64,000 bases of DNA from Octopus vulgaris (Eukaryota). The position numbers and the translations under genes are program-made. The notes beneath the pieces were generated by a model. The model ran no database searches. It had not been told where the DNA came from and worked only from the letters and a program-made list of their open reading frames with translations. Location of the stretch: positions 76,818,001 through 76,882,000 of the forward strand of contig OX597823.1 in assembly GCA_951406725.2 (NCBI GenBank). The letters run 5' to 3'. Positions 1,674 to 57,662 of the stretch are shown here, one piece after another; the stretch's first letter is position 1; the number at the start of each line of letters is the position of its first letter.

Positions 1674-1676
<3 letters not shown>

Positions 1677-1825
1677 GCCATGATAAATCAGTAGCCACTA
1701 CACACATCTTTTTTCTTTCTGTGTTCCTTTCTGTTGAAGAGCGTAGGCTCGAAACCTAAAAGACTTTTACAATTCCTGAGCGTTATACTAATACAGCTGT
1801 TTGTTTCCTACATCACCAGTCTTCG
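1674..1825 (+). mobile_element. PLE pseudo-LTR-like fragment next to (TA)n with decayed minimal hammerhead (1727-1762)
   Basis: cttt-CTGTTGA-a-gagc-gtag-gctc-GAAA-CCTA-aaag. Homologous copy at 34330-34510. Confidence 0.55.
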
Positions 1826-1870
1826 TATGTATGTATGTATGTATGTATGTATGTATGTATGTATGTATGT

Positions 1871-2235
1871 AGCCGCAGGAGTGGCTGTGTGATAAGTAGC
1901 TTGATTACCAAACGTATGGTTCCGGGTTCAGTCCCACTGCATGGCACCTTGAGCAGGTGTCTTCTATAGCCTAGGGTCGACCAAACCCTTGTGAGTAGAT
2001 ATGGTAGACGGAAACTGAAAGAAGCCCGTCGTACATATGTGAGTATATGTGTGTGTGTGTGTGAGTATATGTGTGTGTGTTCCCCCCGCAACTGATGCTG
2101 GTCTCTGTAACTTAGCAGTTCGGCAAAAGAGACGATAAAATAAGTATTAAGCTTACAAAGTCCTGGGGTGAGTTTGTTCGACTAAAAGCGGTGCTCCAGC
2201 ATGGCCGCAGTCAACTGACTGAAACAAGTGAAAGA
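1871..2235 (+). mobile_element. tRNA-derived SINE family 1 (CORE-like block, internal TA/TG microsatellite)
   Basis: Head GGAGTGGCTGTGTGGTAAG...GGTTCAGTCCC (A/B-box-like) and a CCTTGGGCAAGTGTCTT-like block. More than 10 copies in the window. Confidence 0.85.
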
Positions 2236-2329
2236 ATATATATAATTCTTTCTACTATAGACACAAGCTCTGAAAATTGGGGGAGAGGGATGCTATCGAT
2301 TCTGCCAGCTCGACGCCTTAATAATAAGG

Positions 2330-2330
<1 letters not shown>

Positions 2331-2384
<54 letters not shown>

Positions 2385-2388
2385 TAAT

Positions 2389-2431
<43 letters not shown>

Positions 2432-2483
2432 GCAGCAGCAGCAACAACAACAACAACAACAACAATAATAATAATAATAATAA
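2331..2483. repeat. Compound trinucleotide microsatellite (AAT)n(AAC)n(AGC)n
   Basis: Read directly; explains the poly-N/poly-L ORFs. Confidence 0.95.
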
Positions 2484-2867
2484 TATAGGGTACTTTTGTT
2501 TTATAAAACATATGCATGTTTCTACAAATTCCTGCCAGGATTACATAACTGAATCATGAGACAATATATAGTTCTTACAGAAACCTGTCTTTACAGTATT
2601 AAGCAAAAGCCACCTGCGCAACTCCCTGCTGTATTTAAGCTTAGAATGCAGCAGTGAAATGAAAGTAGACTTGAAGGAAAAATCAAAACGACGCTTAACG
2701 TTTGTACACACACACACACAGATACACATATACACTCACACATAATCTACTGCACAGTGCATCAGATAATGTTTTTCTTGGTTCAAGTCTGCCCATGCAC
2801 ACTATACTTTGATATGAAAATAAAGATGCATAGCGAAGAATTAAGATTCCTTTAAGTGTTACCAGTA

Positions 2868-3183: not shown

Positions 3184-3473
3184 ATATATATATGTGTGTG
3201 TGTGTATGTATGTGTGTATGCACGTATAAGTTGCCTTTGATTTCTTTCTATAATTAACAAAATTCTTTGAACAATTTTTAAATAAAAATAATTTCTTTGC
3301 ACTGTTTACAATGAGACCTGAAACGGTTATTTGTATATTTATTTTCTTTTGATTCATTGAGGCACCTTCGAACGCAAAATATAGTGGTTGCTGTTATGTA
3401 TGTCATACAACAACGTTTCTCTTTTACGATGATAGTATGATCATTACATACTCGATTCACTGTCGTACGGGTA

Positions 3474-3517
3474 TCTGAGACACCGGTGTTTCGGCATGTA
3501 GTCTCTCATCAGTCAAA
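3474..3517 (-). ncRNA. Type I hammerhead-like ribozyme, intact core
   Basis: Minus: ttttga-CTGATGA-gagactacatgcc-GAAA-CACCGGTG-TC-tcaga. Palindromic helix III, GUC site, 5-bp helix I; helix II imperfect. Confidence 0.6.
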
Positions 3518-3720
3518 ATCAACCCAATCGAACCTGCTGGCTTTGTTTTATACTTCTAGCAAACAAATTATTTGCCGATCAGTGCTTAAACCTGCCCACC
3601 GATAGAAAAAAAAATCATTATTCTTACTGAGTGCAGCGAAGCACCGACTGGCAAACAATTTGTTTGCAGATAGTATAAACAAAGCCAGCAGCTTTGTCTA
3701 GGTTCAAAGACCCGGGCGCT

Positions 3721-3761
3721 TCCGGCTGACGAGACACATGCCGGAACACAGGTGTCCCAGA
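3721..3761 (+). ncRNA. Decayed hammerhead-like motif, inverted partner of 3474-3517
   Basis: tccgg-CTGACGA-gacacatgcc-GGAA-CACAGGTG-TC-ccaga; GAAA mutated to GGAA. Confidence 0.5.
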
Positions 3762-3912
3762 ATTCCAAGCGTTAATAAGCCAATACTTATTGAACACTCC
3801 ATCATTCTAAAAGTAAGACGTTATTCTATGAAATTACTACGACCAATGTATTTTGCATTCGAACCTACCTGGATGTATTAAGAATAAGCATACAAATAGT
3901 CATTAATATTTA

Positions 3913-4156: not shown

Positions 4157-4369
4157 AATATTTAAATAATTTTGATATTATATTCCCAACATTTTCTCGG
4201 GAACAGTTGTATACAGAGCCTCCCATAACACGTTCGATTATTGAGGCAAAGTTAAGACGTTTGCTTATTGAGGCAAGGTTTACATAAAAGTTAAGCGTTA
4301 AGCTAGTACAAGCATATTTGCAGAGAAGATCCGCCCAAAAAACCTAATATAAATTATCTATGTGGTACC

Positions 4370-4596
4370 TATTTCTTTACTACCTACAAGGGGCTAAACA
4401 CAGAGGGGACAAACAAGGACAGACATGGGTATTAAGTCGATTACATCGACCCCAGTGCGTAACTGGTACTTAATTTATCGACCCTGAAAGAATGAAAGGC
4501 AAAGTCAACCTCGGCGGAATTTGAATTCACAACGTAACGGCAGACGAAATACGCATTTCGCCCGGCGTGCTAACGTTTCTGCCAGCTCGCCGCCTT
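4370..4596 (-). mobile_element. tRNA-derived SINE family 2 (Meta-like core), with TSD
   Basis: Core GCCTTTCAT(C/T)CTTTC(G/A)GGGTCGATAAATTAAGTACCAG and (AAGAAAT) tail. Flanking direct repeat CTATGTGGTACC. Confidence 0.85.
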
Positions 4597-7315
4597 GTAA
4601 ACTACCTATGTGGTACCATATACTATAGCAAGAATTATGGTTTCAGTAAAAGAAAAGAGAACGTCAAATGAAGTAATGTATTTCATGAGTTTTTATAAAA
4701 CTCCAACAGTTTTATTGCTTTCAAAGAAAACACAAGGGTGGAAATTCCCAAAGTACACGAGTATTGTTAGTATGTGTACGTAGGTATCACACATACACAC
4801 ATGTATAATTGTATATATATATATATATATTTATATGCATCTTTATGCATATATAGACACACACATATAGATACAAACACATACACACAAACATACACAT
4901 ATTCACGTGTGCGTGTTTGTAAAGCCTAGCCAGATTATATGACAGACAGTTATAAATCCTAGTTGAATATACATATATGATTAATATATTTTTCTTTCTA
5001 AATCTCTTGGAATTTCAAATTTGGTTTTAATCTATTTATTCAGGTTTGATTTTCATGGCATTCCTATTATTATTGTTTTTGTTGTTGTTGACAGCAACAA
5101 CGTCGACAATAATAACAACTACAACACGGTTACCACCATTTTAATGACAAATTGGTCGAGCAGCATAACAGTCTGAAGCAAAACCCTCTTATCATTTCTT
5201 CCACCATTTCTACTATTAACATCACCTCCGTCTATTGCACTTGCAGCTACAATAACACAAAGCATGGCTGCTGCTAGTTTTTCACAAATGTCCTTGAAGC
5301 AGTAGAATGATTCGATTTATCGGGAGAACAGAAGATAATAAAAATGCTGCATTCGTCGTGTCCCTGAAAATGAAGCAAAGCGCACAAAAATGTATAGTAA
5401 TATACGAACATATATTACCTATAAGAATTGATAGATCGTAAGGTTGAATCTCACCATGGTACAAAAATTACTGATGATTGTATAGGATGCTGAAACTCAT
5501 CACCCACAGTAAGTAATGTGGGACAGTGGACATTAGGCTCCTCTACAGTGAGGTGGGGGCAGGTGAAGAATTACTTCATACTTATAAAGGACATATTCGT
5601 TGGAGTTCTAATAGAAAAAGTGTAACTGCCTGACGAAAGTCAGCACTGGATAACCGGGGACAGACAACAGAAAATGATATTTGTTCCGCGAACTTTCAAA
5701 ACTTTACACACATTACTTTTTCACATGGTTCTGAATATGACATTAAAGTGCATCCGCTGGTCAGACTTCAGTTCTCCTCTGCATCTAAGGAACTTATTCT
5801 GCCCGTACAAAATTCTATTTAACTCAGTAGAAGCAACAAAACCCAGGTTCTTGAACAACACCAAGCAAAACTCTAGGAATAGCGAAGGAAATATCTTCTG
5901 GCTCAGAAGTGCATCTACATGGAAAAGTACCTTGTCCTCTAACAATTTCAACTTGTAGTACAACTCCTTCATCGTACAACGTGGAAGGAATAATTACAGA
6001 TGAAAATGCTAAAAGAAAGAAAAAGGGGTGGGGAAAAGCAGAAAAAATGACTCAACGTTTTGCACCGAAAACAGATAATGAAGAACAATTTCTCTTGAAC
6101 GACAAGATTGCATATCTCTGGAGCAATGGAATATCCCAAAAATTTATAATGGCACAAAAATAGTTAATTTTCAGACTGTAAACAGCATGTAAAAGGCAGA
6201 ATACTAGTAAAATTAAGACATTACATCAAACTTGAAAAAGAATATCTTCAAAATATTAGTGTGTTTTTTTTTTTAATAAAATGTCTCAAAAAATGCATAA
6301 TAGTGCATTTGTTGCACTGAAAAATAGCTTGAGAAGAGTTTAATGTATGAGATCGTGGAGAACCAATCTAGACCTAGCCAGCAAATATTTCAAGTCTTCT
6401 TGAAATAACAACACCTTGTTTGAATTATTGTGTATTTTATTATACAGTTATTATTTCCGTGCAAATATGTGTTTATGCATACATATCTGTAAATGCATAT
6501 GTGTACTCATGTTTGTTTCTGTACTTTTGTGTGTGTGTGTGTGTAATATGTGGACACCTATAAAATTCTTAATACACCCGCTTACATTTTGTATGTCATC
6601 ACCTACCCCACTATGTTGTATTTGTAAACGTATTCTGTTTCTTTTTTTTCACATTCCACGACCGCTTATCTATCTTTGTAAACCCTACTGAAGGTTTCAT
6701 ATGTTTAATATCTCCATGTGGCTAATAAAGAAAAGATTATCGTTCTTGCTGTAGTTTTTAATCCTATTACTCCAAGTTTTGCAAACCAAATATCTTCTTA
6801 CTTAAAACTGGAACTAAGACCATCTAAGGGAACATTCATAAAATATTTCAGGTCTAACAAATATTTGATTGTTAAATAATCTAGCGCAGCATTTGAAATG
6901 GTTTCTAAAATTTAAATACGATAATAGCAGTACATGCATAGTTATAGGCATGTCTATGTGATAACGGCTTTCGCATTGCAACTCCAGAGGTCTGCGTTTG
7001 ATTCCATGATTGAATTACTTTCTCTATTCTTTAAAATTTAGAAAAGGGGTACTAATCGAACGTTAAGCTTAACTTCTTTTCCTCTATATACCTGTCCGAA
7101 AAAGAACAGAGCAGTTTGATGAAATTTCTGATAAACAGAATTTTATTGTTTTCGTACACACACACACACACACAAAAGAAAACGAATGCCGTTACTACAG
7201 AAGACAAAACATCAAGAGAGTTTTTTGTTCTTGCTGTAGTTGTAGCAGTTCATAAAGTATTGTTAGTTGCTTGACGGCTAATGACTTCTAAGTTTTTTCA
7301 TCTTCAAACTGTCCA

Positions 7316-7832
7316 TTGCCTTTCATCCTTTCGGGGTCGATTAAATAAGTACCAGTTACGCACTGGGGTCGATGTAATCGACTTAATCCCTTTGTCTGTC
7401 TTTGTTTGTCCCCTCTATGTTTAGCCCCTTGTGGGCAATAAAAAAATAAGAGACGTTAGCACGCCGGGTGAAATGTTTAGCAGCATTTCGTCTGCGGTTA
7501 CGTTCTGAGTTCAAATTCCGCCGAGGTCGACTTTGCCTTTCATCCTTTCGGGTTCGATTAAATAAGTACCAGTTGCGCACTGGGGTCGATATAATCGACT
7601 TAATCTGTTTGTCTATCCTTCTTTGTCCCCTCTGTGTTTAGCCCCTTGTGAGTAGTAAAGAAATAGGTATTTCGTCAGTCTTTACGTTCTGAGTTCAAAT
7701 TCCGCCGAGGTCTACTTTACCTTTCATCCTTTCGAGGTCGATAAATTAAGTACCACTTGCATACTAGGGTCGATCTAATCGACTGGCTCCCTCCCCAAAA
7801 TTTTTAGGCCTTGTGCCTGGAGTAGAAAAGAA
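7316..7832 (+). mobile_element. SINE family 2 multimer (A-A-B tails)
   Basis: Three successive cores. Junction AAAGAAATA|GGTATTTCGTC at ~7660; last unit ends in the alternative tail GGCCTTGTGCC..GTAGAAAAGAAT. Confidence 0.8.
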
Positions 7833-14732: not shown

Positions 14733-15391
14733 AACTTATATTAGTTACGCCATTTTAAAATTAACAACAGAGGCGGCCTTTCGCTTAGCATATTCATGAC
14801 CGTATTCGTTTCTTTTAGGTACCTTCTTCCATGCTAATACAGATTAATCAAATACAAATTTGTGAGTCATTGCTTTTCACCTGGGCCCTTTCATGTAACA
14901 AACGCCAGTTTTTCAATAAAGCTATTTTTATTCTACTCGTTTTCGAAAGCACAGGGCTACTGGACAATTTGCTGAAGGAGAAATGTCAACAGATATAACT
15001 GCTCGTAGATATCTAGCTGACCCCGTGCAGTCAAAAATGATGGGTAATAGTAGTATTTTATAAATAAATAAGGTACATAATAATCACACATACAAACAAT
15101 CACATAATTTCCTTGTATACGCACACACATACACACATATGCTCACACAGAGTTGGAAGCCTGTTTCATTTGTTTTCAGCGTTGAACGTTCACCATCTCA
15201 TTTCCATTGCACACACACACACACACACAAACGTTCACATACCTCCATTTTACGTACACACACACACGTTCTCACACCGAGTTGAAACACTGATTTTTTA
15301 CCCCTTCGTTTCTCATTCATATGTTGCGATGAAGAAAAACAGAAGACACACGATGCGCTCTTTGCCACTTCCATTCTCTCATTGCTATTAC

Positions 15392-15452
<61 letters not shown>

Positions 15453-15606
15453 CAGGCTATTACTCTCACTACTTCTCCTCCACTGAATTACTTTTTTCTC
15501 TCCTCTCCCTTCACTTATACTACTCTTTCTCCTACTCTGTGATCTTGCACAAATGTATATATATATATATATATATATATTTTTACAAATTATATAGAAT
15601 TGGAAC

Positions 15607-15677
15607 GATCGTACTGAAGAGTCCACGGACGAGGATTACGTAAGTAAAATCGTTGATGGCGAAACCGGTCTACGATT
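15607..15677 (+). ncRNA. Type I hammerhead ribozyme candidate, intact core, long helix II
   Basis: gatcgta-CTGAAGA-(40-nt imperfect hairpin)-GAAA-CCGG-TC-tacgatt. Helix I of 6-7 bp, palindromic ACCGGT helix III, GUC site at 15670. Confidence 0.75.
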
Positions 15678-15840
15678 AATTCTGTATTTTGTATATTTTC
15701 ATTTGTCTTACCCGCTTATGTTCTGGTGTTTGCTGAATTTATCTAGAGAACATTCTTTTTATTGTAGTTAGATCGTAGGCGATCTTCTTCTAGCATATTG
15801 GTTGTCCACTTACTGGTCATCCCTATTATACGCGCGTATA

Positions 15841-16237
15841 TCTTTATATATAAAAGTGAGGTTGTGTGCTGTCTGTCTCCTACGATTTAGATTCCTAACT
15901 ACTCCCACATTTTGCGGTGCAGTTTAGCCAAAACCGGGTATCTTATAGTCGTGATTCATATCGAGCCCTTCTGGGTATTAGCGCGCGTCTACGATGAATC
16001 TACGATTTTAAAAAAAATTTACCATTAATTTTTCTCATTTTTAATGCATTTTTGGCATATATATAAGGGAAGTAACTCTCTAAAAGTTTATTATTAAATC
16101 TCAGAACGTAAAAAGCTACAGTAACACCCCCCTTTGTGGTTAACCATATTGAGATGGCTATTATACTTTACATCTCTAAAAATGCTTATATAGTTATTTC
16201 CCTTACAAACCCGAGCAACGCCGGGCGATACTGCTAG
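15841..16237 (+). mobile_element. Complete non-autonomous Helitron (397 bp)
   Basis: A|TC...hairpin CCCGAGCAACGCCGGG...CTAG|T with no TSD: canonical Helitron termini and target. Confidence 0.92.
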
Positions 16238-17008: not shown

Positions 17009-18717
17009 CACTTGCGTCGGAAATTAATTAGCACTTCTCAAATTTCTACATTTTCTTACATTTTCTTAATTTAATTAACTTATTATCAGAAACGAACTCG
17101 TTTTTAATCAAAAATTTATTAAAACATATCCCAGCACACCACATAATTGTTATTAATCGTGAAATTTAGTCAATATCTTGTTGCTCCTCCTTTGGCAGCA
17201 ATGACAGCTGCTACGCGGGTCGGCATGCTGTCTATGAGTGCCTGCAGGTACTGTGCAGGGATGGCCCCTCATGCAGCAAGGAGTGCCCCAAACAGCTCGT
17301 GTCGGTTCCTGTATTGTTGCACATTCAAATCCCTACCCAATCGACTCCAGAGGTTCTCAATAGGGTTCAGGTCAGGTGACTGGCCAGGCCAGTCCATGAC
17401 CGTCACCCCATGGTCCTTGAAGAAACCGGTTGTGAGCTTGGCTGTGTGGGAAGGCGCGTTGTCCTGCTGGAGCAGTACTCCTCGCCACCAAAGAGGTATC
17501 CCGTACTATCTCAACGTACTTTGCTGCGTTGATGTTGCCTTCGACGGCATAGAGCCGTCCAACACCACTGTAGCTGAACGCCCCTCACACCATCAGATCA
17601 CCCCCACCTTGCTTCATGGTGGGAGCAATGCAGTCTTTGTTGAAGCGCTCACCCCTGCGGCGTCGCACATGGACAGGCTTGTCACTGACGAGACTGAATC
17701 GCGACTCGTCAGTGAACATCACTGTCCGCCACTGCTGCACGGTCCATGTCTTGTGGGCACGGGCCCAGAGCAGCCGCCTCTTCCGGTGTTGGGCTGTAAG
17801 GAGCGGCTTACGGGTGGCCCTGCAGGATTTTAGACCAGCTTCCAGTAATCTGGTCTTGACGGTGGTTGTAGACAACTGCTTCCCTATCACCTTTTGCATC
17901 TCCTCCGCCAGTTGCCGGCTCGTTGCCCTTCGGTTGTACAGTGACTTTCGGATCAGCATCCGGTCCTCCCGCTGGGTCGTCAGCCTCTTCCGTCCCCTAC
18001 CCTTTTTGTCAGCTGCTGATCCGGTTTCCTCGTATTTCTTAAATAAGCACTGAATTGTGCGCCTGGCTACACCAAGTTTTCTGGCTATTGCAGCCTCCGA
18101 CAGCTTCCCACGCCACGAGAGAGCCTCGTACCGTCTCTCCAAGGTCATGCGAGGTCTTGGGCCCATCTAGGAATGAACGATAAAAACTAGTTATTTTCAT
18201 TAAAACTATTCATTTGAATAATGTTATGCTATAACAAAACTGCTATGAGTTATTATTCATTAAACAAAAAAGAAAGAAAGAAGAATTTCTCATCTTATTT
18301 GATGTATAACAGAAAGTTTTGTGAACCGGAAGTGACGTCACGAAGCAGAGTGTAGGAGAATTTGTGAGGAAAAAAAATCTTGCAAATACACAAATCAATT
18401 AACCTACGAGCTGTTCAAACGTCTTATGCGATGAGAAAACTTAGTACGGTGTGATTTCGGTCCTTGCGAGGAGCTACCTATATCTATTAAGCAAAGGAAG
18501 ATTTGTCTGCATCCGCACTCCAAGTTGTTGTTGCACTGCTATGTCAACATCATTAGGCTGTAGACTCTCAAACCGCTCTGCAAACAAAGTTACGTCATCG
18601 TTCTGCGCAACAGTGAACTCGCAACAAAGCAATAGTTCGAGATATGGCCACTAGGTGACAGCAAATACCTTGAGTGAAGAGCAAATCAAGGGTGCTAATT
18701 AATTTCTGACGGTAGTG
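17009..18717 (-). mobile_element. Tc1-family DNA transposon (DD34E), near full length
   Basis: 26-bp TIRs CACT(TG/AC)CGTC(G/A)GAAATTAATTAGCAC with TA on both sides. Confidence 0.93.
17170..18166 (-). pseudogene. Tc1 transposase pseudogene
   Basis: HTH region, RKPLL, VMFTDESRF, QQDNAPSH...WPGQSPDLNPIENLW (34 residues between D and E), ending KGGATRY*. Has TGG>TGA stops and frameshifts. Confidence 0.92.
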
Positions 18718-20332: not shown

Positions 20333-20349
20333 AGTTAGCCGTTTTCCAT

Positions 20350-20389
20350 TGTGTGACTTGAAGTTTCACCCTTCCAATCCTCAGACAAA
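20350..20389 (-). ncRNA. Hammerhead-like motif with decayed helix II
   Basis: Minus: tttgt-CTGAGGA-ttggaagggt-GAAA-CTTCAAG-TC-acaca. Confidence 0.4.
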
Positions 20390-20532
20390 TAGGGAGGGAA
20401 ATCATTTATGTTATACGAAAGCTGTGGGAACGTTGAGACACTAAAGTAAGTTTTGATTGGTTGCCGGAGGCAAATGAAGAATGTTGGTTAATTGAAGAAA
20501 GAATGTGGGGACAAGGAATGGTTTAGATTGTA

Positions 20533-25254: not shown

Positions 25255-25290
25255 GCTTAATCGTACCCGTAGACTATATTAATGATAACA

Positions 25291-25518
25291 GGCGGTGAGC
25301 TGGCAGAAACGTTAGCGCGCGGGCAAAATGCTTAGCGGTATTTCGTCTGTCGTTACGTTCTGAGTTCAAATTCCGCCGAGGTCGACTTTGCCTTTCATCC
25401 TTTCGGGGCGATAAATAAAGTACCAGTTTCGCACTGGGGTCAATGTAATGAACTTAATTCCTTTGTCTGTCCTTGTTTGTCCCCTCTATGTTTAGCCCCT
25501 TGTGGGCAGTAAAGAAAT
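25291..25518 (+). mobile_element. SINE family 2 copy with 16-bp TSD
   Basis: TATATTAATGATAACA on both sides. Confidence 0.88.
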
Positions 25519-34329: not shown

Positions 34330-34333
<4 letters not shown>

Positions 34334-34510
34334 CCATGATAGATCGGTAGCCACTACACACATTTTTTCTCTCCTTGTTTGTTTTTTTCTTGTCCCTTTC
34401 TGTAGGCTCGAAATGTAAAAGACTTTTCCCATTCCTGAGCGTTATACTAATACATCTGTTTGTTTTGTACACCATCTGTCTTCGTCTTTTGTTTTTTTCG
34501 TGAACTCTCC
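34330..34510 (+). mobile_element. Second copy of the 1674-1825 pLTR-like fragment, between (TA)n tracts
   Basis: Clear homology; hammerhead core partly deleted (CTGTAGGCTCGAAATGTAAAAG). Confidence 0.6.
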
Positions 34511-34529
34511 CCTTATATATATATAAATG

Positions 34530-36738: not shown

Positions 36739-37137
36739 CTTACATGCAATATAACATTATTTGGGAAAACATTTACATATATACATATAAACAGGAAAAG
36801 CATTATGATTAAAAAAGCATAAACGTACATGGGAAACCGATTCAAGTCATTGATGGGGTGAAGCCTGTCCCAGAGTTGAAAGAAAACAATTTTTTTACAT
36901 ATGTATAAAGATAGGCACGTGAAGAGCTTATATGAAAAGAAGTAGAAATGTCATAAAAAGAAGTCGAAAAAAGGAAAATATATGCACAAGGAATAAAGAT
37001 AGAATGCCAGATATAGGATCCAAGACAATGAGAGAAAGAGAAAAAAGGAGAGAAAATAGAATAGAACGCAAACAGAAAGAGATAATGGGAAAATGTTTAT
37101 GAGGATTAATAAACACTTTTCTATATAATGAGCTTCG

Positions 37138-37213: not shown

Positions 37214-37370
37214 GGGGGGGGGAGAAGAAGAAGAAGCGAAAATGCACATTGGAAATTAAAAAATGTAAAGGCTTTTTATGAAAAGTAACGATAGATATAT
37301 ACAATTAGATGAACTGAGGTAGGAATAAAAGTAATAAAACTCATTATTATGAATTGTTAAAGAGATTCAA

Positions 37371-37408
37371 AAGCTCACCGGTTTCGTAAAATTACTAATC
37401 ATTGCTTT
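37371..37408 (-). ncRNA. Decayed hammerhead-like motif
   Basis: Minus: aaagc-AATGATTA-gtaa-tt-ttac-GAAA-CCGG-TG-agctt. Confidence 0.4.
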
Positions 37409-38180
37409 GAATGCACACCGATTACTGAACGATGTTAGGTCTACTAGTCCCCGAGTAAAAAGATTATGTTTAAGGGAGGTAAGTAGTTCTAGATTTGGTG
37501 CAATTAGGGTAGATATAGATCTGTAATGTGAATGGTGTATGGGATGTATGGGGGGTAGTGGTTTTAATTTAAAAGGTTAGTAGTGTTCTGTATTATGTTA
37601 TGTGTTCATATTGAGGTATCGGATCGACTCCAGTACATTTGTTTTAAAGCCTGATACTTGTTCTATCTGTCAACATCACCTTTGGCTCTCTCCCACTCTC
37701 CATCTATTTACACACACAAACACACACGTTGCTAAATGTATCACATCTCCTCGCTTCTTTCTCCTCTCTCTTTCTTTCTCCGTTGTCTTCGGTTTGTTAA
37801 TTACAAATGGTCAATCTGGCTGAGATCCTGATGTCGAAAAGTATTTATTGATCCTCATAAATACTTTTGATTTCTCTTTCTCTTTCCATTCTATTTCCTC
37901 TCTTTTCTTTTCCTCTTTCTCTCGTTGTCTTGGGTCCAGCTTCTGCCATTTTATCTCAATTCCTAGGACATTATTATTCTGTTCATTTCCGTGTTATTTA
38001 TATTACTTCTACCTCTTTTCATAAAGGTTCTTCATATACCTATCTTTATATACATTTTAAAATTATCTTATTCTAATACTTTCAGGGGCTTCTAACCTTC
38101 AAACTTCTGAATTCATTTCCTATATACGCTAATGCTCTCTCGGTAAATATTTCCCAAATGAAATTACACATCATACTTGA

Positions 38181-38261
38181 AGCTCCGACGAAGCTACAGG
38201 GTGACATTCAAGCATTCACCTGTGTGTGCATTACACCTTATAACAGAAACATCTGTTAGCT
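38181..38261 (+). ncRNA. Decayed hammerhead-like motif, long helix II
   Basis: agct-CCGACGA-...-GAAA-CATCTG-TT-agct. Confidence 0.4.
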
Positions 38262-38393
38262 AATGAAATTCATAACATTTTTTAATATTTCTTAGTTATT
38301 CTAATTTCTTATTGCCGATCTATACTCCACTTACACTTCGATCTGAAGCTTATGTATATTGAGTTTTAACACCAGGTTGTTAGTGTTGCTCGT

Positions 38394-38707: not shown

Positions 38708-38860
38708 TACTTAGCGTTGCTCTGCCTAAGCAAAATATTAATATATTTTGTATAAGAGAGAGAGAGAGAGAAAGACAGACAGACAGAAATAGACAGAGAC
38801 AAACAGAGAGAGAAAGATAGATATTAATTGAAAATGGAATGGACGACATTATTTATTTAA

Positions 38861-38969
38861 AATCACTACAATTATTTCGACATATTTTTTACACTCGTAC
38901 AAAATTGATGAGATCTAGCGTAATCTTTATCATCAATGAATGGTGTAAAATAGGACTCTTCAGGTGATT
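38861..38969 (-). ncRNA. Type I hammerhead ribozyme candidate, intact core, ~78-nt helix II
   Basis: Minus: aatcac-CTGAAGA-[tattttacac..attgatga..tcatcaat..gtgtaaaa]-GAAA-TAATTG-TA-gtgatt. Perfect 6-bp helix I, GUA site. Confidence 0.75.
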
Positions 38970-40030
38970 GCCTATATAAGCACACGCATAATACTTTCCA
39001 AGGCCTCGGTGACTCGTGATAGAAAGGTAGGAACAGCTGTTTATTTGTTTATCTTTGCTCCTTAGTGTATGCAATACTCGGTGATCTGTCAACCTGTCGA
39101 CTACGTCAATATATCCTGTTTTGTTAGGTGCAATTTTTTACTTACTTTAATTTGTTGGTTACTTTGTTTATTCTTATATTAGAATTAGTATTGTTGCACC
39201 ACTACAGTTTTTAAATGTTGCTGGAGTGCTATTAAATGTTTACTTGCTTACAATTTCGGACAAACTTTTAAGAATTGGATATTTTCCGGAGTCTACAACG
39301 AAGTATCGGATCGACTCCAGTACATTTGTTTTAAAGCCTGATACTTGTTCTATGCGTTAGGTCACGGACACGTAAAAACACCAACACAGGTTGTCAACCG
39401 GTGATGACGGACAGACACACACACACATACATACACACAAGCATGCATGAACGCACATGCACACGCACACATGCACCGACGCACATGTACGTACGCACAC
39501 GCACACAGAGAGACAAAGAGGTTGTGGTGTGTGACATTTATGTTTTTAACTAGGTTTTTTCTCCGTTACTTAGCCCGTTTGTAACGTTTTAACGTGATTA
39601 GTTGAAGAGAAGGCGAAGATTGAAAGAAAAAGGAGAAAGAAAGATAGAGTAAGGTGAAGAATGAGAGAAAAATAGGGAGAGTTGTGTGTATTAAGTATAT
39701 GAAATTGTGCATAAAAATATAAAATGAATATATAAATTGTATTAAGTAATCATCGTATTCCAATTTCCTTTACTTTTCAGTGATTAGCAGATGAGTGACT
39801 ATCTTCCCATACGCTTTCAGGTTTTGGGGGTAAAGTTTTCAGAAATAACTCACTAAATTTACCATTAAGTCCATCAAATATTCACGGGTCCCGCTAGCAA
39901 AATATGTAATATGCAAACAAAAAAAGAACATGCGGCTCTGAGACAAGACAAGACAAAACGTGTGTATAAATGATGCAATAGAAAAGGGTGTCCTATAGGA
40001 CTGGAAAGGAGAAGTAGACAAATGAAAATA

Positions 40031-40266: not shown

Positions 40267-41266
40267 TTTAGAAAGCGAGATGGAAAGAACGAACGGTGAA
40301 AAAAGACGAATTCGATGTTGAAAGTAAAGAAAAAAGGGAGAAGCCAGGAGAAGCGTGACTGAATAAGTCAGCGGTCAAGCGAAAAACACGAACTTGGAAA
40401 GGGAAATAGAATGGTCACGGGTGATATGGTAGTGGAAGAAGAGGGGAGAGAAAGAAAGTGGTTGAGGGCAGAGACACATAAAAAGCCACAGAGAGGCAAG
40501 ATGAATTGAGAGGGAAAGAAAGTGTGAGGAAGAGAGAAAAATAAAGAGAGAGGGACGTTGTACTAAAAGAAACTCCAGCTTATATAGGAGGACAGTGAGA
40601 AGATGGGTGCGTGGCTTTATATTAGACAATAGTTTCAAAAATTAAACAGAAGCACGTGAAAGGAACGAACGCAAAATTGATACACAAAACATTGCCCTGC
40701 TATGATTAAAGATCTTAAACGATTTGAGAAACGTAACCCTTTCATGTTTAAAAATCTGTGAACTGTAAACTTTTCAGAAATAAAAATATGAAGTGCAGAC
40801 AAGTCTGAAGTAGATTGTTATGTAAATAAGATGTAGAAATCAAGCAACTAGCCAATACATTAATAATTTGGCTGACAAAGTAAGTAACCTCTACAAAATG
40901 CATAGATGCACATAAAAATATGAACATAAGGATATATATGTGTGTGTGTACATACATACATACATACATACATACATACATACATACATACATACATACA
41001 TACATACATACATACGTACATACATAATCATACACACAGACGAGTAAGTACTGGCATTGATATAGCGACATCTGAAATTTTGTCTAGTTGAATCTAGCCG
41101 ATGAGAACTAATAAAATTTACGTTGACAAACGTAATCTAGAAAGTTCGAAACCTAGATCCTAGATTATCCACATCTGGGTTGTACATTTATTCAATGTTC
41201 TTCCTATAGGTAAGATGAAATTTCTAAGGTTCACCGCCCGCAAACATTTTTGCCAGTATATATATA

Positions 41267-41659: not shown

Positions 41660-42448
41660 AGCAACACAGCACGGGGCTATTAGTCTGGCGTCAAGAACAA
41701 TAACACTACGTTCAAGCTCCAATACATAAAAGATTTTATATAAATTAAATAAAGGCATTAAATTCCGAACTTTTTCATATTTGTTCGTGTCTCTTCTAAG
41801 GACGATCGTCGATCCTACAGGTGGTTTTCAAATCTAAAAATAATCAATATTTTATAAGATAGTAAATTTAATAACCCTCGATTTCAAAAAATATAAATAA
41901 TATATTTATCAATGAAAAAATTTTCTATATAATCTATACTATCCATCTATTGCCTCTAATCACCCGAACTAAAATAACCTCTACAGTAAACAATTGAATA
42001 TAAGACAAACCTACCTCACAGCTTAGTTCTCTGATATCTACCCATCCACAAACACAATCACGCATTCAGACACACACACATACACACATTAAGACAGTTA
42101 TATAGTCACACACACAGGCACTCATTCATAAAAGAAATCATTTAAACCCACCATTCTTTTGACCTGCATTAAGTCTTTACTATTCTTATGCCTCCCTCCT
42201 CCTACTTGGTTTGAACCCTAACCTTTAGAATATCTATATTCTATATATATATCATATACTATGACGTCACTCCTTATAAATATATATATATTATCGCCAT
42301 GGGCTCCTTGAAAGCGGTATAAAAGTTTTTGTCGCATTTTATGTCGACTGTTCCTTGATTTCCTGATGTAAATATTGGTGCATTCCTTCGGAATTAGGTA
42401 CCACCGTCGAAACATATATCGATAATATAGGATATTTGTTAACTAGTC

Positions 42449-42450
<2 letters not shown>
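41660..42450 (+). mobile_element. Probable PLE 3'/pseudo-LTR remnant with decayed hammerhead (42359-42423)
   Basis: TGACGTCA..TATAAATA motif, then CTGATGT...GAAACATATATC; abuts (TA)n. Confidence 0.35.
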
Positions 42451-42532
<82 letters not shown>

Positions 42533-43004
42533 TGAAGAAGACAAAATCATAGGAATTTAAAAATAAAGAACATGAGTAAAATACTACACAATGTTTTAGT
42601 CTACCATATTGATTTGAGTCTATGACTGATACTTATTTTATTAACCTCGGATTATCATGTGCAGGAATCTAATGGAACAGAGGCAAATATCGTAAGATAT
42701 TTTTCCAACACGAGATTCCGAAGAGTTTCTACCGAGTAAGTTTTCACTTACAAGGGGTTACACAAGTAGGCCGAAGTTAAGTTAGAAAACATATGCCTAA
42801 GTTTAGTGTATAAGCAATTAAGAAAAATCTCTAGTGTGTCGATTTTACGGTAAATAGTGGGTTGGTGTGTAATTAATGACCGTTTCGTTTATTCTAAATT
42901 TTAAATAAAACTGTCGTAAATCAAATTATAAAACGGTCGTTAACTTGTTTAACAAACCAACCCAGCAAAAATGATAAATGTCCTGACAATATATAGCTTA
43001 AATA

Positions 43005-43410
43005 AGGCGGCGAGCTGGCAGAAACGTTAGCACGCCGGGCGAAATGCTTAGCGGTATTTCGTCTGCCGCTACGTTCTGAGTTCAAATTCCGCCGAGGTCG
43101 ACTTTGCCTTTCATCCTTTCGGGGTCGATAAATTAAGTACCAGTTACGCACTGGGGTCGATGTAATCGACTTAATGCGTTTGTCTGTCCTTTTATTTGTT
43201 CCCTCTGTGTGTAGCCCCTTGTGGGTAGTAAAGAAATCGGTATTTTGTCTGTCTTTACGTTCTGAGTTCAAATTCCACCGAGGTCAACTTTGTCTTTCAA
43301 CCTTTCGGGGTCGATAAATCAAGTATCAGTAGCGTACTGGGTTCGATCTAATCGACTGCCCCACCCTACTCAGCAAACATTTCGGACCTTGTGCCAAGAG
43401 AAGAAAAGAA
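43005..43410 (+). mobile_element. SINE family 2 dimer (A+B)
   Basis: Complete head, A tail, junction AAAGAAATC|GGTATT, B tail. Confidence 0.87.
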
Positions 43411-43959
43411 TATATAACTTAAATCTAAGGCAGCCAACTGGCAATCGCTACCTCGCTGGACAAAATCCTTGACGTTATATCTTCCGACTTTATGGGCTAA
43501 GTTCAAATGCCACCGGAGTCAACTTTGGCTTTCATCCTTTCAAATTCGTTGAAATAAGTACCGTTTGAGCACTGGGGTCGATCTAACAGATTACTCCTTT
43601 CCATGAAATTGCTGGCCTTATGCCAACATTTGAAAATAATATATAATTTGAATTTAACATTCAAAGATTTTATCGTGGGATCTAGTAGACAAATTTTAAA
43701 CGCTGATATGTACGCTTTAAGTGAAAATAATCTTAATACGAACGATAATATAGATATCCCTTAATAATGATTTAAACCTATGGTACAGGGCCAACAGTTT
43801 GTGAGGGGAGAAAGTCGATTACATCGTCCCCAATACTTGTCTTGTACTTATTTTATCGACCCGAGAAGATGAAAGGCAAAGTCAGCCTCTGCGAAATTTG
43901 CCCAGCGTGCTACTGATTCTGCCAGCCTGCCACCTTAGATTCCTTTAATAATAAGGAAG

Positions 43960-44800
43960 AAATATCAACGATTCTTAAATTAAAATTGGATGATAAAAGA
44001 ATATGAAAAGCAAGAAAGTAATGCGATGTGTTATTGCTTTTAACACAACATTTTCAGTCTTACAGAATAGGAGCAGACTGTTTGTTTTTGACAATGAAAA
44101 TATATTTCAAAATAAGATTCTCACCTCCTCACAAGCTACAAATCTTGAAAGAAGGTTATGGAAAATTATATGGATACCAACACTTGTTTGTTACTTATTT
44201 TGTCAACTAAAAACTCTAGATTGTATGAAGGATATGATTCAAACATGGAAATAATTCAACTTCAACATTTCTTTAACAACAAATACACTAAGAGTAGACT
44301 CCTTAGACATCGCCGTGAACCTGTCTATTAAAAGATAGCAAACGTATCGGAAATTAACCGGGGCAGCTAACTCAAGTGAGTAAATCTTAATGCTATTCAG
44401 CAACAATCTAAAGAATATTGAATGCAAATGTAAGCATAAGAATAACAAGCAAATCTACTGATAAACTTCAACCATGTGGTGCACAACTACAATAACACTT
44501 TAACAAATGGTGGATATAATGAAAAATCGAATTCCTGCCTAAGTAACAAGTTATATCTAGAAGCAAGAAAAGAAATATAATCTGGTTTGACCTGGCATAG
44601 AGTTGGAATGTAAAATCAAGGAAAGCTAGGAACTTATCAGTCCTACTTAACAAACAATTTGCTGCTAACCATAAGTAAGATAACTTATTTAATAGACATA
44701 ATGTAAATGTCAGTTTCCGTTGCATAAAGAAAAATGTAATGTGAAGTATGAAACAAGATTATAATAACAAGAGATTCAAACATATAGCAATCTAAAAGTA
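43960..44800 (+). pseudogene. Penelope-like RT thumb/linker remnant
   Basis: FNISLTTNTLRVDSLDIAVNL; KKRNIIWFDLA*SWNVKS...NKQFAANHK*DNLFNRHNVNVSFRC (compare PLE RNIIWFNPP..FNRNTVKVSYSC). Confidence 0.78.
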
Positions 44801-45200: not shown

Positions 45201-45606
45201 TATTTCTTATTTCTTTATTGCCCACAAGGGGCTAAACGTAGAGGGTACAAACAAGGAGAGACAAAGGGATTAGGTCGATTACATCGACCCCAGTGCGTGA
45301 CACCGAAAAGATGAAAGGCAAAGTCGTCCTCGCCGGAATTTGAACACAGAACGTAACGGCAGACGAAGCACCTATTTCTTTACTACCCACAAGGGGCTAA
45401 ACATAGAGGGAACAAACAAGGACAGACATAGGTATTAAGTCGATTACATCGACCCTAGTGCATAACTGGTACTTAATTTATCGACCCCGGAAGGATGAAA
45501 GGCAAAGTCGACCTCGGCGGAATTTGAACTCAGAACGTAACGGCAGACGAAATACCGCTAAGCATTTCGTCCGGCGTGCTTATGTTTCTGCCAGCTCGCC
45601 ACCTTA
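45201..45606 (-). mobile_element. SINE family 2 dimer inserted in a family 1 SINE, 17-bp TSD
   Basis: ACGGGCTTTCAGTTTCT at 45184-45200 and 45607-45623. Confidence 0.88.
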
Positions 45607-47519: not shown

Positions 47520-47802
47520 TAAGAAAGTTGGTTTGTGTGAAAGCACGTGGTTGAATATATAGAAAATAGTAAAAAGTGAAAAAACTACAGAAGGCTTGTT
47601 TTAAAAGGTTAAAAAATATATATTTGAGTCAATATGTCTGAAGAATATTATAAATTATTTTCTTACAATGACATATAATATTCTTCAGACATATTGACTC
47701 AAATATATATTTTTTAACCTTTTAAAACAAGCCTTCTGTAGTTTTTTCACTTTTTACTATTTTCTCTCTCTCTATATATATATATATATGTGTGTGTGTG
47801 TA

Positions 47803-53269: not shown

Positions 53270-53305
<36 letters not shown>

Positions 53306-54639
53306 CAGATGTATAGATATAAAGAGATCAAACAGATGTTTCAATACATAGATAAATTAATACACATACATAAAGTCCTAAATATGGATGACTGAACTAT
53401 TCAGATAGAAATTCGAAGAAAAAGAGACAGCGATAAGTAAAATATATATATATATAATACAATAAAATAAAAAGAAAGCAAAGCAAATAAGATGGGAAAA
53501 GAATAATACAGCAGTAAACTGAGAAACGTAAGAGTAAGAGAAAGAAAAAAGATTTTATAGAAGATGAAAAACCAATAATAAATTCATAAAAGCAGAATAG
53601 AGAGAAAAAAATGAAAGATAACGAAAGAGAAATAAGAAATGAGAAATAGTTGAGTGGACACAAAAAATAATGGCGAAGGAATAGGGATAAAAGACAAAGA
53701 AAGAAAGAGAAAAAGAAAGAAGGAAAGAAAGGAAAGGAAAAGAAGAGAAGAGAAATAAAGAAAGAATGAAGGAGGGTGAGAGGCGGAGAGATGAAAAATG
53801 AAAAATGGAAAGAGAAAGTAATATATTGAACTGAAAAGATAGTAATGGCCAGATTAACAAAGAATTTAACATATGAACTGAGAGAAGAAATTCTTACTGT
53901 CTCTTTTAGTTATGCATAACAGGTGCAGCAGCGAATTCTGGCAAATTCTATTTGACTGAAGGCATTACTAAAGTCTAAGATAAAGAAACAAAACAAAAAA
54001 AAAAACAAAGAAAAAAACATAGAAAAAAAAAGCAAGTTATTCTATCTAGCTGTCTCTTCTGAGCTGAGGCAGCAGACAATATTCACTACTTGAACTGACT
54101 TTGATTCGAGTCTCTTCAAATGGAATTGTTTTAGTTTTAAAGTGCTTCTTGTACGACAATTTCTTGGAAAATATGTTTTTGCGATCGTCATTGCAAATTT
54201 TTGTGTCGTCGTTGTTGTATTTGTTGTTATTGCTGTTGTTGCTGTTGTTGTTGTTGTTGCTGTTGTTGTTGTTTAACCCCCAGTCAGTCGGAGAAAATTG
54301 TTTTTTAACCTATTATTATTAAAGGTATTTCAGAAACATCGTATCTAGTTTTACGTTTACCTAATGTAATCTTTTTTGAAAAGTAACAAAGAGAATTCTA
54401 GTGAGCGACTGGAGGGAGATTGAACAGATATATCTAATAACCATTGAGACTCTCGTTAACCTGTTACGTTTTATCGCCGTTTGCCATGATAAAATGGCCA
54501 ACTAACAGCTAAGTCTACAGTAGACGTTTTCATCTTTTATTTAACGCAGCAGTTTTCAAACTGCGTCTAGCAAAATCAGTCTAAGACCTTCACAGGAGTT
54601 CTCAACCATTTTTTTTACCTAAGGATCCCTTTAATTACT

Positions 54640-55331
54640 ATTCTTATTTCTTTATTGCCCACAAGGGGCTAAACATAGAGGGGACAAACAAGGACAAACA
54701 AAGGGATTAAGTCGATTACATCGACCCCCAGTGCGTAACTGGTACTTAATTTATCGCTGGGTGAAATGCTTAGAGGTGTTTCGTCTGCCGTTACGTTCTG
54801 AGTTCAAATTACTATTCTTATTTCTTTATTGCCCCCAAGGGGCTAAACATAGAGGGGACAAACAAGGACAAACAAAGGGATTAAGTCGATTACATCGACC
54901 CCAGTGCGTAACTGGTACTTAATTTATCGCTGGGTGAAATGCTTAGAGGTGTTTCGTCAACCGTTACGTTCTGAGTTCAAATTCCGCCGAGGTCGACTTT
55001 GCCTTTCATCCTTTCAGGGTCGATTAAATAAGTGCCAGTTGCGCACTGGGGTCGATATAATCGACTTGATCCGTTTGTCTGTCCTCGTTTGTCCCTTCTG
55101 TATTTAGCCCCTTGAGGGTAATAAAGAAATAGGTATTTCGTCTGCTGTTACGTTCTGAGTTCAAATTCCGCCGAAGTCGACTTTGCCTTTCATCCTTTCG
55201 GGGTCGATAAATTAAGTACCAGTTACTCACTGAGGTCGATATAATCGACTTAATCTCTTTGCCTGTTCTTGTTTGTCCCCTCTGTGTTTAGCCCCCTGTG
55301 GGCAATAAAGAAATAAAAAAGAAAATAAGAA
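54640..55331. mobile_element. SINE family 2 complex: inverted 3' segment plus forward dimer, with a 174-bp tandem duplication
   Basis: Inversion junction TTTATCG|CTGGGTGAAATG occurs twice, 174 bp apart. Confidence 0.82.
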
Positions 55332-55879
55332 TCAATAACAGAATGAAAACCAAAGGACTTATCCCCTCCCCGAATTTTCTGGCCTTGTGCCAAAATTAGA
55401 AATCATTATTACTGCATGGTCTAGTCGATAGGGTCAGACTTGAAACGAAACAGTCGCATGTCTCATTAAGTGTGATCTGGGCAAAAGATCATCACCGAAT
55501 ATTATTAGATTGGGAAACTTTTCAGGAACTCCCAACTGCATTCTAGATTTAATTAACTCTAATTACTTTAAATTCTAGGGTTGACTTTCCTGTCATTCTT
55601 CACCAGAATCCTTTATTTAGATAATTGCTTTTTCTCAACAATGACGGCATAAATTTAAATAATTAAAAATATTCCACTGTTTACATCAAGTATTCTAACA
55701 AACACTATTACTGCTAAAAGTTTATGATGAAGTTCGAGATGCTTGCTGTAGAAGTAAGGAAGTAGGAGCTGAGAGCTGAACATCTCACGCTAGAAGATAT
55801 ACTTGATAACATTAGCGGCCAACCCGATATAGCATTAACGTGAATATGTTTTATTGTTGTTGTAATCGTATTTTCACGG

Positions 55880-55932
<53 letters not shown>

Positions 55933-56185
55933 TCTAATATAACGACAATATGTACAGGCTGCGGTAAATAAATTGTCGTCTAAATTACGCAAAATTGAAA
56001 AGAAACACTGGCATCTCATTTTAGCAGATATGGCACTACATAAAAATACTAAAGAGTAAGGAGAGTATCGTAGTTCGCTTGAAGCATTGTGTATTGTTTC
56101 TAAAGAATAAAAAGTTTTGACTGGTACAACAATGCACTATAATACAGACAATGGTCTATATACCTGTTGTAATTTAGTCATTCAT

Positions 56186-56228
56186 AGTCTTATAATATTT
56201 CGGAATAAAATTCCTTCTTCAGATATTC
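56186..56228 (-). ncRNA. Hammerhead-like motif, intact core and helix II, weak helix I
   Basis: Minus: CTGAAGA-a-ggaat-ttt-attcc-GAAA-TATTA-TA. Confidence 0.5.
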
Positions 56229-56327
56229 TTCGATGGAGTCGCTCCTATAATCGGTTTTCTAACAGCTTTTCGTATTATAGTGAATTGTTGTGCCATTCAA
56301 AACTTTTTATTCTTTACTAAAGAGTAA

Positions 56328-56400
56328 ATTTATTCAATAAAATTACCATTGGCTTCAACAACGGTCTCCAGACGACCTCGGAATCTCCTGAAACTCTTCT
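56328..56400 (-). pseudogene. C-terminal fragment of a Tc1/mariner-superfamily transposase
   Basis: KSFRRFRGRLETVVEANGNFIE*. Confidence 0.55.
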
Positions 56401-57496
56401 GAGCAGAAATTCTAACCCCACGAACAAATAACGAAAGGAATCGTAAATTGAAAAGCCACACATATTGATATCTTCACGATTTCAAACTTTGTGAAGCTGT
56501 CACTTAATTCTCATCAGCGAGTCGTTCTCACCCGAGGGTCAAAGAACCTACCCATCTCAAACAATGTGCGCGATGACCGTCTTTAATGCCGTGCCAAATT
56601 TAAAAAGGTGTTTGAAGTGAATGATAAAGCATAAAAATATACGTAAGAATATTACTGTTTCCACTAATATCAAATGGCATAGCATTCATTAGATGAGGGG
56701 GGAATTATTAATTAATAATTAAGGGTACTGCAAATAGCTCCAGCACGATAAAAATAGCAGTAGGCCAATTAATGCTTATCAGTGAAAATTTTTGGTTGTA
56801 GTCGCCTTCTGACTGCTATCTTTAGCGTGCTGGTGCTATTTGTAGCACCCTCAATATTAATGTGTGTGTGTATATACATACATGAACACACACACGTACG
56901 CACACACACACACACACACCTGAATGTCTGTCTGTCTGTATGTATGTATGTATGTACGTATGCATGTACGTAAGTAAGTATGTATGTCTACATGTATTTC
57001 TACATAAGTTATTGGATATTTCAACGGCTATTATTCGGAGATTCCTAAGCGCGAAAATACATGTCTAATCGATTCGAAGTCCGATTTATGGTGAACATGT
57101 GATCGATAACCTATTTGCTCCTAAACCCATAAATACAAAACAGAAATGGCCCTATAAGTCATCATCTGTCTCTATAACCTCTACATCTTGAATGAAATGC
57201 ATTTTGCTTTTACATATTACTCAAATATACGCACGCACACATGCAGACACATATGCATGCGTACACATACATACATAAATACATACATCGATATACGTAT
57301 ACATACATATAAATATGTAGACACATACACACAAGCATACATATGTATGTATGATGTATGCATTAATCTATATGTATATATATATATATATATGTAAAGT
57401 TAATCCAAACAAGAAAGCACAAAAAAAAACACAACGCGAGGACGTGGAACAAATATAGTATTATTGGACGCTCAGGAAAGAAGGAAAGAAGGAGGG

Positions 57497-57529
57497 TTTA
57501 ACGTTTCGAGCGGAGCTCTTCGTCAGAAA
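57497..57529 (-). ncRNA. Minimal hammerhead motif, intact core
   Basis: Minus: ttt-CTGACGA-a-gagc-tcc-gctc-GAAA-CG-TT-aaa. Lies in a ~200-bp element (57397-57605) related to 1674-1825. Confidence 0.55.
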
Positions 57530-57662
57530 TGTAGGAGAAGGAAAGATCCAGAGAAGGGAAGACAGAGGGAAAAAATCGCCAACGGTACACACGAGGTCAC
57601 ATTTTGAAAGACCGGAAGGAAAAGGGTGAAGAAAGAAGTATGTATGTATGTATGTACCTGCA

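Follow-up and report, generated by a model that had tools for sequence, protein, structure and literature searches.

Type I hammerhead motifs with variant catalytic cores in an octopus genome and their probable origin from Penelope-like elements

Previously, a first-pass annotation of a 64,000-nt stretch of the Octopus vulgaris genome (positions 76818001-76882000 of its contig; hereafter the window, meaning the whole stretch analysed) listed twelve hammerhead-like ribozyme motifs and connected them with Penelope-like elements (PLEs). The window has 36% G+C and many microsatellites. All twelve motifs were found where they had been placed, and eleven of them belong to ten dispersed repeat families whose fold is that of a type I hammerhead; these eleven sites have relatives with a better-kept fold elsewhere in the genome (2.8 Gb in 227 contigs were searched). 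The remaining motif, at 20350, is single-copy and lacks helix II, and is probably a chance occurrence or very old. The features are listed below under the site names of the first-pass annotation (ORF, open reading frame; RT, reverse transcriptase).

1674..1826, plus strand: copy of a ~225-nt fixed-end ORF-less repeat (1727 site); core at 1731, CUGUUGA (A6U), with a 4-bp helix II and a minimal helix III
3343..3560, minus strand: old type I hammerhead copy (3474 site); core at 3512 with exact letters, helix II worn to one pair
3640..3890, plus strand: copy of the 3474/3721 family; core at 3726, GAAA altered
15576..15852, plus strand: 5'-truncated copy of a ~525-nt terminally redundant ORF-less unit (15607 site); intact hammerhead, core at 15614
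20345..20395, minus strand: core letters without helix II (20350 site); matches only itself in the genome
25127..25290, plus strand: eroded hammerhead (25179 site); core at 25182, helix II domain of 52 nt in the family
34332..34514, plus strand: second copy of the 1727 family, core deleted; absent from the first-pass annotation
37223..37615, minus strand: 3' end of a Neptune-type PLE (37371 site); core at 37402, AUGAUUA (A3-U8)
38150..38384, plus strand: eroded copy (38181 site); core at 38185, U4C
38826..38980, minus strand: nearly intact hammerhead (38861 site); core at 38963, 77-78-nt helix II domain, palindromic helix III
41085..41170, plus strand: hammerhead absent from the first-pass annotation; U4C core at 41098, 7-bp helix I, 43-nt helix II domain
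42326..42530, plus strand: eroded copy (42359 site); the 54-nt helix II domain of the family is intact elsewhere
56058..56328, minus strand: 5'-truncated 3' end of an RT/GIY-YIG PLE (56186 site); core at 56222, a tail and a short inverted piece
57366..57602, minus strand: copy of a ~225-nt fixed-end ORF-less repeat (57497 site); core at 57526 canonical, the majority of the family U4C

Hammerhead folds of the window copies and their families

Genome searches returned relatives for the 3474/3721 family (nine others) and for the sites 15607, 38861, 57497, 56186, 25179, 37371 and 38181, and relatives of the 1727 and 42359 families turned up within loci fetched for other purposes. The majority core is exactly CUGANGA...GAAA...UH in type I order in five families, and carries a single substitution or a 3-8 swap in four others. 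Scrambled-order hammerheads at 25179, 37371 and 38181 were ruled out, all three being readable in the ordinary type I order. For the 38861 and 37371 families, 88% and 93% of the cells in helices I, II and III around the core were paired, compared with 20-48% in slid controls, the structure having been drawn from the same sequences.

The preservation of single copies agreed only in part with the labels first given to them. Among the motifs called intact, 15607 and 38861 are the best-kept copies in the window, and 56186 and 57497 have exact cores next to a helix I of 3-bp A-U, whereas the label does not fit 3474 with its single remaining helix II pair. Those called decayed at 3721, 25179, 38181 and 42359 are indeed eroded. 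The cores at 1727 and 37371 are instead family-wide variants: whole families carry A6U or A3-U8, and the view that variant cores are merely decayed was not borne out. The 3474-site copy is the inverted partner of the copy with its core at 3726, in a family with a 6-bp helix I, a 4-bp helix II and a palindromic helix III. The 15607 copy has a helix II domain of 40 nt and a predicted cut after 15670; the 56186 copy has an extra A after A9 and a 5-bp helix II. The 37371 hammerhead combines a 10-bp helix I and a 3-bp helix II with an ACCGGU helix III, and G17 in the window copy amounts to a lost cut site. U4 and C4 are mixed in the 38181 family, which has a 54-nt helix II domain; the hammerhead at 41098 has 40 other family matches of 85-91% identity, and the 42359 family has 5 copies per 1.2 Mb. 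A near-perfect inverted repeat at 47600-47730 bears a CUGAAGA word on each arm, for which no GAAA or helix III partner was recognised.

Within the window alone, descriptor evidence for hammerheads is modest. A minimal-hammerhead descriptor, built once the sites were known and tolerating a long helix II, a helix III of minimal size and one additional base behind A9, gave three matches (15614, 56222 and 57526); local dinucleotide shuffles averaged 0.22, and none of 60 reached three. An earlier, first descriptor without the extra base and the minimal helix III had recovered one site only. No match was left at a tighter setting, and allowing one core mismatch gave one match versus 1.13 in shuffles. 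An Rfam scan of the window returned nothing at the gathering score, and the best 150 of 369 matches at E<=10 contained no hammerhead, being filled by microsatellite matches; this blank may be explained by Rfam models not made for a minimal helix III or a long helix II. The comparison of motif counts with shuffled sequence, proposed in the first-pass annotation, gave an excess in the window and over 1.2 Mb of genome (see below), but none in the window at the tighter setting. Eleven of the twelve motifs are considered confirmed on the evidence of family relatives that keep the fold. Contigs of four probable RNA runs over 15300-16000 pool all copies of the 15607 family and do not resolve ends, strand or level, so that a depth rise behind the predicted cut was not counted.

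Genome-wide abundance and variant cores

A strict scan of a genome sample (120 evenly spaced 10-kb stretches, 1.2 Mb in total) found 17 canonical cores, compared with 0.0 in four shuffles and 0 in reversed sequence. Scaled up to the genome, this makes ~40,000 canonical motifs, or ~100,000 once the variant classes are included. In 12 of the 17 strict canonical matches the helix II domain is 34-100 nt long. Hammerheads with 78-100-nt helix II domains were seen at the sampled loci L169, L302, L170 and L274, with inverted pairs at L169 and L170. Under a looser descriptor, a repeat at L172:2867 and L180:9869 can be read as a hammerhead whose helix II domain spans 92-93 nt.

The first-pass annotation had proposed a high density of motifs at this locus. 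With a library of 41 seeds taken entirely from the 1.2-Mb sample, and with the seeds of L165, L161 and one of L180 excluded, the window held 3 copies versus 4.7 per 64 kb in the sample (P 0.79): it is typical of the genome, and the claim had to be given up. An earlier library count (35 in the window, 14.7 per 64 kb) was dropped for a chance seed in a 184-bp repeat and for including the window's own families. An abundant SINE-like repeat (SINE, short interspersed nuclear element) of 184-bp period, often in short tandems, lies at 4296-4604, 7229-7802, 25290-25530, 29117-29358, 30545-30875, 32075-32328, 36193-36742, 43003-43610, 45202-45606, 54639-55411 and 60569-60868.

C3-G8 is a tertiary pair of the active hammerhead core, and engineered 3-8 exchanges stay active. 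As rare natural variants of the core, U3-A8, A6C and U4C are described in the parts of PMC3088659 and PMC7151607 used here. A literature search that reached few subscription papers found no natural A3-U8, G3-C8 or A6U core. When positions 3, 4, 6 and 8 were left free in the strict scan of the 1.2-Mb sample, we counted 9 A6U cores (0.0 in shuffles), 7 U4C (0.0), 7 U3-A8 (1.5) and 4 G3-C8 (0.0), while the eight mismatched 3-8 classes together gave 6 versus 4.0 in shuffles, near chance.

Whole-genome counts of exact core patterns, for which reversed-pattern controls gave 0, place these variants in families. The 37371 family (n=72) comprises 55 A3-U8, 11 G3-C8, 2 G-U and 4 mismatched copies. A separate family with 6,834 exact matches has G3-C8 in 95 of the first 100 matches listed, and an insertion footprint like that of the other families. 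This short repeat, seen at L158, L171, L186, L302, L116, L073 and L294, has a helix I of 7 bp; its 3' ends are fixed at two points, and its copies often lie head to head in pairs. In the 1727 family, U6 is present in 16,703 matches versus 645 with another base and in 20/20 examined copies; position 7 is free, and all four bases occur there among the genome-wide matches. The 57497 family has 10,486 matches, with C4 in 75 and U4 in 20 of the first 100 listed. CpG decay as the sole source of the canonical core at 57526 was weakened as an explanation by these 20 U4 cores versus 3 of the opposite-strand product, which point to a U4 subfamily. Beyond this family, U4C occurs at 38185 and 41098 and beside Hydra-type ORFs elsewhere. 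Judged from the sequences, covariation at the 3-8 core pair appears clear between subfamilies and families, in few independent events.

PLE partners, insertion footprints and possible roles of the motifs

Three stretches of the window matched PLE ORFs.

23585-23788, minus strand: Hydra-type PLE ORF remnant; tblastn E 3e-8 versus the ORF of locus L230
25728-26952, plus strand: broken Hydra-type PLE ORF; E 1e-18, with RWK-like and DKT motifs
44577-44717, plus strand: weak Hydra-type PLE ORF remnant; tblastn E 3e-4

The PLE remnants announced in the first-pass annotation were thereby confirmed by tblastn as three Hydra-type pieces. A DKT motif spotted in translation led to the Hydra-type family, whose ORFs match these stretches; the names Neptune-type and Hydra-type follow the motifs given in PMC8557442 rather than a tree. 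Pfam, run on 298 of 343 complex window frames, missed the Hydra-type remnants, as did tblastn and hidden Markov model searches with two other PLE lineages. Pfam blanks carry no weight because Pfam also missed a clear PLE fragment and a Hydra-type ORF. The genome contains intact RT/GIY-YIG ORFs of 781 aa (Pfam RVT_1 and GIY-YIG). A young 781-aa Neptune-type PLE with many near-identical copies has a long internally repeated 3' region (L036:5587-6100 and L037:5506-6000). A U4C hammerhead with a 7-nt helix III insert lies beside Hydra-type ORFs at L229:1177, L231:1180 and L222:2075, and these ORFs are related to a family with intact 717-aa frames.

Two hammerhead families sit at the 3' ends of coding elements. 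For the 37371 family this element is a Neptune-type PLE, with a sense ORF upstream in 11/14 copies and a CX2-5CxxC linker in its ORFs. The 56186 family belongs to a second RT/GIY-YIG lineage: longer copies show the ORF end ~300 nt upstream, and a sense ORF lies upstream in 27/36 copies, 20 of these loci having been fetched by ORF. The 25179 motif precedes the largest Hydra-type remnant of the window, with a SINE-like insert between them. No RT/GIY-YIG ORF was found upstream in the families of 1727, 3474/3721, 15607, 38181, 38861, 42359 and 57497. Linking of the flanks to PLEs across the genome, as the first-pass annotation had suggested, succeeded for the 37371 and 56186 families, was weak for 25179 and yielded no ORF for the remaining families.

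The 15607 family is an ORF-less, terminally redundant, retrozyme-like unit. Sequence 270-200 nt upstream of its core recurs 250-330 nt downstream, with an offset of 525-537 nt in three longer copies, and the joint is contiguous in 39/40 scored places. A PLE ORF within 1.3 kb was found in 0/28 copies, an inverted partner accompanies 7/23 places, and (TA)n follows each of two 3' ends. The ORF-less 1727 and 57497 families measure ~225 nt, with recurrent 5' starts and fixed 3' ends within (TA)n; from their 23 and 12 copies in the 1.2-Mb sample, genome-wide numbers of ~54,000 and ~28,000 are extrapolated. In the sample, 22/24 copies of the 1727 family and 12/14 of the 57497 family start upstream of the predicted cut; none starts <=20 nt after it, and no 5' ends pile up there. 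These copies thus extend across the cut site, which agrees with the insertion from uncut RNA described in the part of PMC11167929 used here. Across families the recurrent footprint consists of two fixed 3' ends, often separated by 40-100 nt, 5' ends that may be ragged or fixed, inverted partners and AT-rich flanks.

We consider it likely that the motifs are pseudo-LTR (long terminal repeat) stubs of several PLE families and of their ORF-less dependants, inserted from uncut RNA, that cleavage, if any, occurs in tandem or paired master transcripts, and that single copies are inert, as those in the window probably are. This reading builds on family membership, the upstream ORFs of two families, the redundant unit, the fixed 3' ends, the 5' ends, the inverted partners and the (TA)n flanks. 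It also agrees with the earlier proposal that many PLE lineages and non-autonomous derivatives left motifs here, seen in the ORFs upstream of the 37371 and 56186 families and in the permuted ORF-less 15607 unit. In the PLE model of PMC11167929, as far as its text was available, the RT/GIY-YIG protein would nick AT-rich DNA, reverse transcription would begin on uncut RNA at either of two positions immediately 3' of the hammerhead, and copying would pass through the motif and stop or flip after 100-700 nt. The ORF-less repeats are likely mobilised by the same enzymes as the PLEs. Cleavage would be confined to tandem or paired transcripts of a few master copies, via the palindromic helix III, and selection would act on these masters. 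Compensation is therefore expected between subfamilies and families, where all four Watson-Crick pairs occur at 3-8, and not among dead copies. A6U or U4C stands in the two most abundant ORF-less families; the fold is therefore likely kept for recognition by the PLE protein, with slow or no cutting. Some variant-core families are predicted to keep self-cutting and others to have largely lost it.

Several observations weigh against this explanation. Six of the ten families have no autonomous partner in the data examined, so their PLE link rests on footprint and fold, and an ORF lies near only 2/16 other copies of the 25179 family. Scans found no clear hammerhead beside the ORF end in the young 781-aa Neptune-type family (L036, L037). 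No same-strand tandem dimer of the 525-nt unit was seen in 40 scored or 23 fetched places. In the 38861 family RNAalifold did not recover the hammerhead fold; double changes affect 7/34 pairs of this family, a value reached by 47/500 shuffles, and 1/16 pairs among 13 distinct copies of the 37371 family. Such weak covariation within families is expected of dead copies, yet it is no proof of function, and the A-U/G-C split of the 37371 family is probably one event.

Chance matching in AT-rich repetitive DNA is practically untenable as a general explanation. It holds for 20350, and the Rfam blank and the one tight descriptor setting without an excess in the window would suit it, but the 17 canonical matches absent from shuffled and reversed sequence, together with families conserving the fold, had already refuted it for 11/12 sites. 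We regard it as highly improbable that single copies are active cis-elements cutting host read-through or intronic RNA, as the first-pass annotation had suggested as a possibility. The 15607 and 38861 copies do retain all core letters and helices, the tens of thousands of motifs in the genome imply that some must fall in transcribed DNA, and long helix II domains could give stabilising contacts. On the other hand, helix III is a 1-3-bp palindrome that requires a partner, and the copies are solitary, with same-strand neighbours from different families with different helix III palindromes; copies of the 38861 and 37371 families drift without compensation, and no host gene was established among the window frames searched with Pfam. 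The part of PMC4209133 used here reports single minimal motifs without cleavage, and that of PMC11167929 no RNA-seq ends at the site. Ordinary SINEs moved by long interspersed nuclear elements, with the hammerhead fold an inherited relic, could account for the ~225-nt fixed-end families (1727, 57497), which have many copies with fixed 5' starts and no ORF, and a curated octopus annotation holds 893 unclassified recently active SINE families (PMC13282606). We find this improbable: (TA)n flanks either side, head-to-head inverted partners occur (L259), no poly(A) tail was seen in these families, and the minimal-hammerhead layout agrees with the published PLE consensus.

We judge it unlikely that all variant cores (A3-U8, G3-C8, U4C and A6U) are fully active, with cleavage required in every family and with A6U and U4C either tolerated or made functional by protein, metal ions or tertiary contacts. 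A6U subfamilies do vary freely at position 7 while helices, GAAA and the NUH site are fixed, as for a selected fold, and U4C turns up repeatedly: in the families of 57497 and 38181, at 41098, and next to Hydra-type ORFs. A viroid U4C variant was sufficient in vivo (PMC3088659) and A6C cleaves with Mn2+ (PMC7151607), according to the parts of these papers used here. In Mg2+, however, A6C is orders of magnitude slower (PMC7151607) and is slow in nature (PMC3088659), genomic copies derive from uncut RNA, and hammerhead mutants left PLE insertion in vitro unaffected in the experiments of PMC11167929 used here.

Starting from PLE stubs inserted from uncut RNA, we tentatively extend the argument to a natural mutational scan of the hammerhead core, a possibility that we consider less likely than not: autonomous PLEs would keep the 3-8 pair via all four Watson-Crick forms, the purine-first A3-U8 and G3-C8 among them, the most successful ORF-less parasites would have fixed A6U or U4C and spread with little efficient cutting, the fold would serve the former as catalyst and the latter as recognition tag, and ~100,000 motifs, many of them with helix II domains of 34-100 nt, would have been missed by published descriptors. 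The A6U/U4C parasites, with tens of thousands of copies, are likely filed at present as unclassified SINEs. The hammerheads of PLEs cut poorly in vitro and mutants still insert; a review passage suggests that they may be passengers. The 3-8 pair exists only in the active core, and its compensatory swap within a family that carries ORFs speaks for selection of the active fold in vivo. The success of an A6U parasite family, with 16,700 copies or more, is an argument that mobilisation may not need cutting. Variant-core families thus make the need of PLEs for cutting testable, and core variants widen the descriptors needed for counting ribozymes in animal genomes.

Other features of the window include Tc1/mariner transposase remnants at 17147-18166 (minus strand) and 57975-58301 (plus strand; Pfam HTH_Tnp_Tc3_2 and DDE_3), a 38-bp minisatellite of ~10.6 copies at 28029-28431, and a unique stretch at 5626-6163 with overlapping 100-aa open frames, which gave only a weak, below-cut-off PHD match on the minus strand and is possibly an exon or an old transposon.

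Comparison with known elements and ribozymes

Dispersed PLE hammerheads have been known since 2014; new relative to the papers searched are the 3-8 swaps that put the purine first, the A6U family with its very high copy number and the length of the helix II domains. The octopus motifs resemble the metazoan PLE pseudo-LTR hammerheads of Cervera and de la Pena 2014 (PMC4209133, as far as covered by the text used here) in type I order, short helix I, palindromic minimal helix III, the extra base after A9 in some families and the U3-A8 variant. As in that work, most are single dispersed motifs, with inverted pairs 100-700 bp apart and few copies inside full elements. They differ in their helix II domains of 34-100 nt in 12/17 matches, compared with the published 6-8 bp with a short loop, and in family-wide A3-U8, G3-C8, A6U and U4C cores. 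The extrapolated ~40,000 canonical motifs compare with ~9,000 in frog and ~4,000 in coelacanth, counted with other descriptors. Minimal PLE hammerheads are described as showing no cleavage as monomers (PMC4209133) or as needing the PLE protein (PMC11167929) in the available parts of these sources.

The coding elements are similar to the Neptune-type and Hydra-clade endonuclease-positive (EN+) PLEs described by Craig et al. 2021 (PMC8557442, text used in part), sharing the C-terminal GIY-YIG domain and the CX2-5CxxC linker (37371 family), RWK and DKT motifs (window remnants), tails, inverted 5'-truncated partners and microsatellite targets. Core-swapped octopus hammerheads would evade the descriptors named in that text, and the octopus clades are assigned by motif only. 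The two fixed 3' ends with a tail, the AT-rich targets and the copies from uncut RNA are also found in the PAc Poseidon element of the green anole (Frangieh et al. 2024, PMC11167929, in the part used here), for which the demonstration is biochemical, whereas the octopus mechanism would follow from genomic footprints.

The 15607 family, ORF-less, a few hundred bases in unit length and equipped with a type I hammerhead, is like the metazoan non-LTR retrozymes (Cervera and de la Pena 2020, PMC7229834; Li et al. 2026, 10.64898/2026.07.22.740005), for which mobilisation by PLEs is proposed in the parts of these works used here. Unlike those retrozymes, the 525-nt octopus unit is inserted as <=~1.2 units, no tandem array of it was seen, and its long helix II is non-canonical. 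Among natural core variants, U3-A8, A6C and U4C are known as rare from the available passages of Perreault et al. 2011 (PMC3088659) and Naghdi et al. 2020 (PMC7151607), whereas A3-U8, G3-C8 and A6U define octopus families of tens to tens of thousands of copies.

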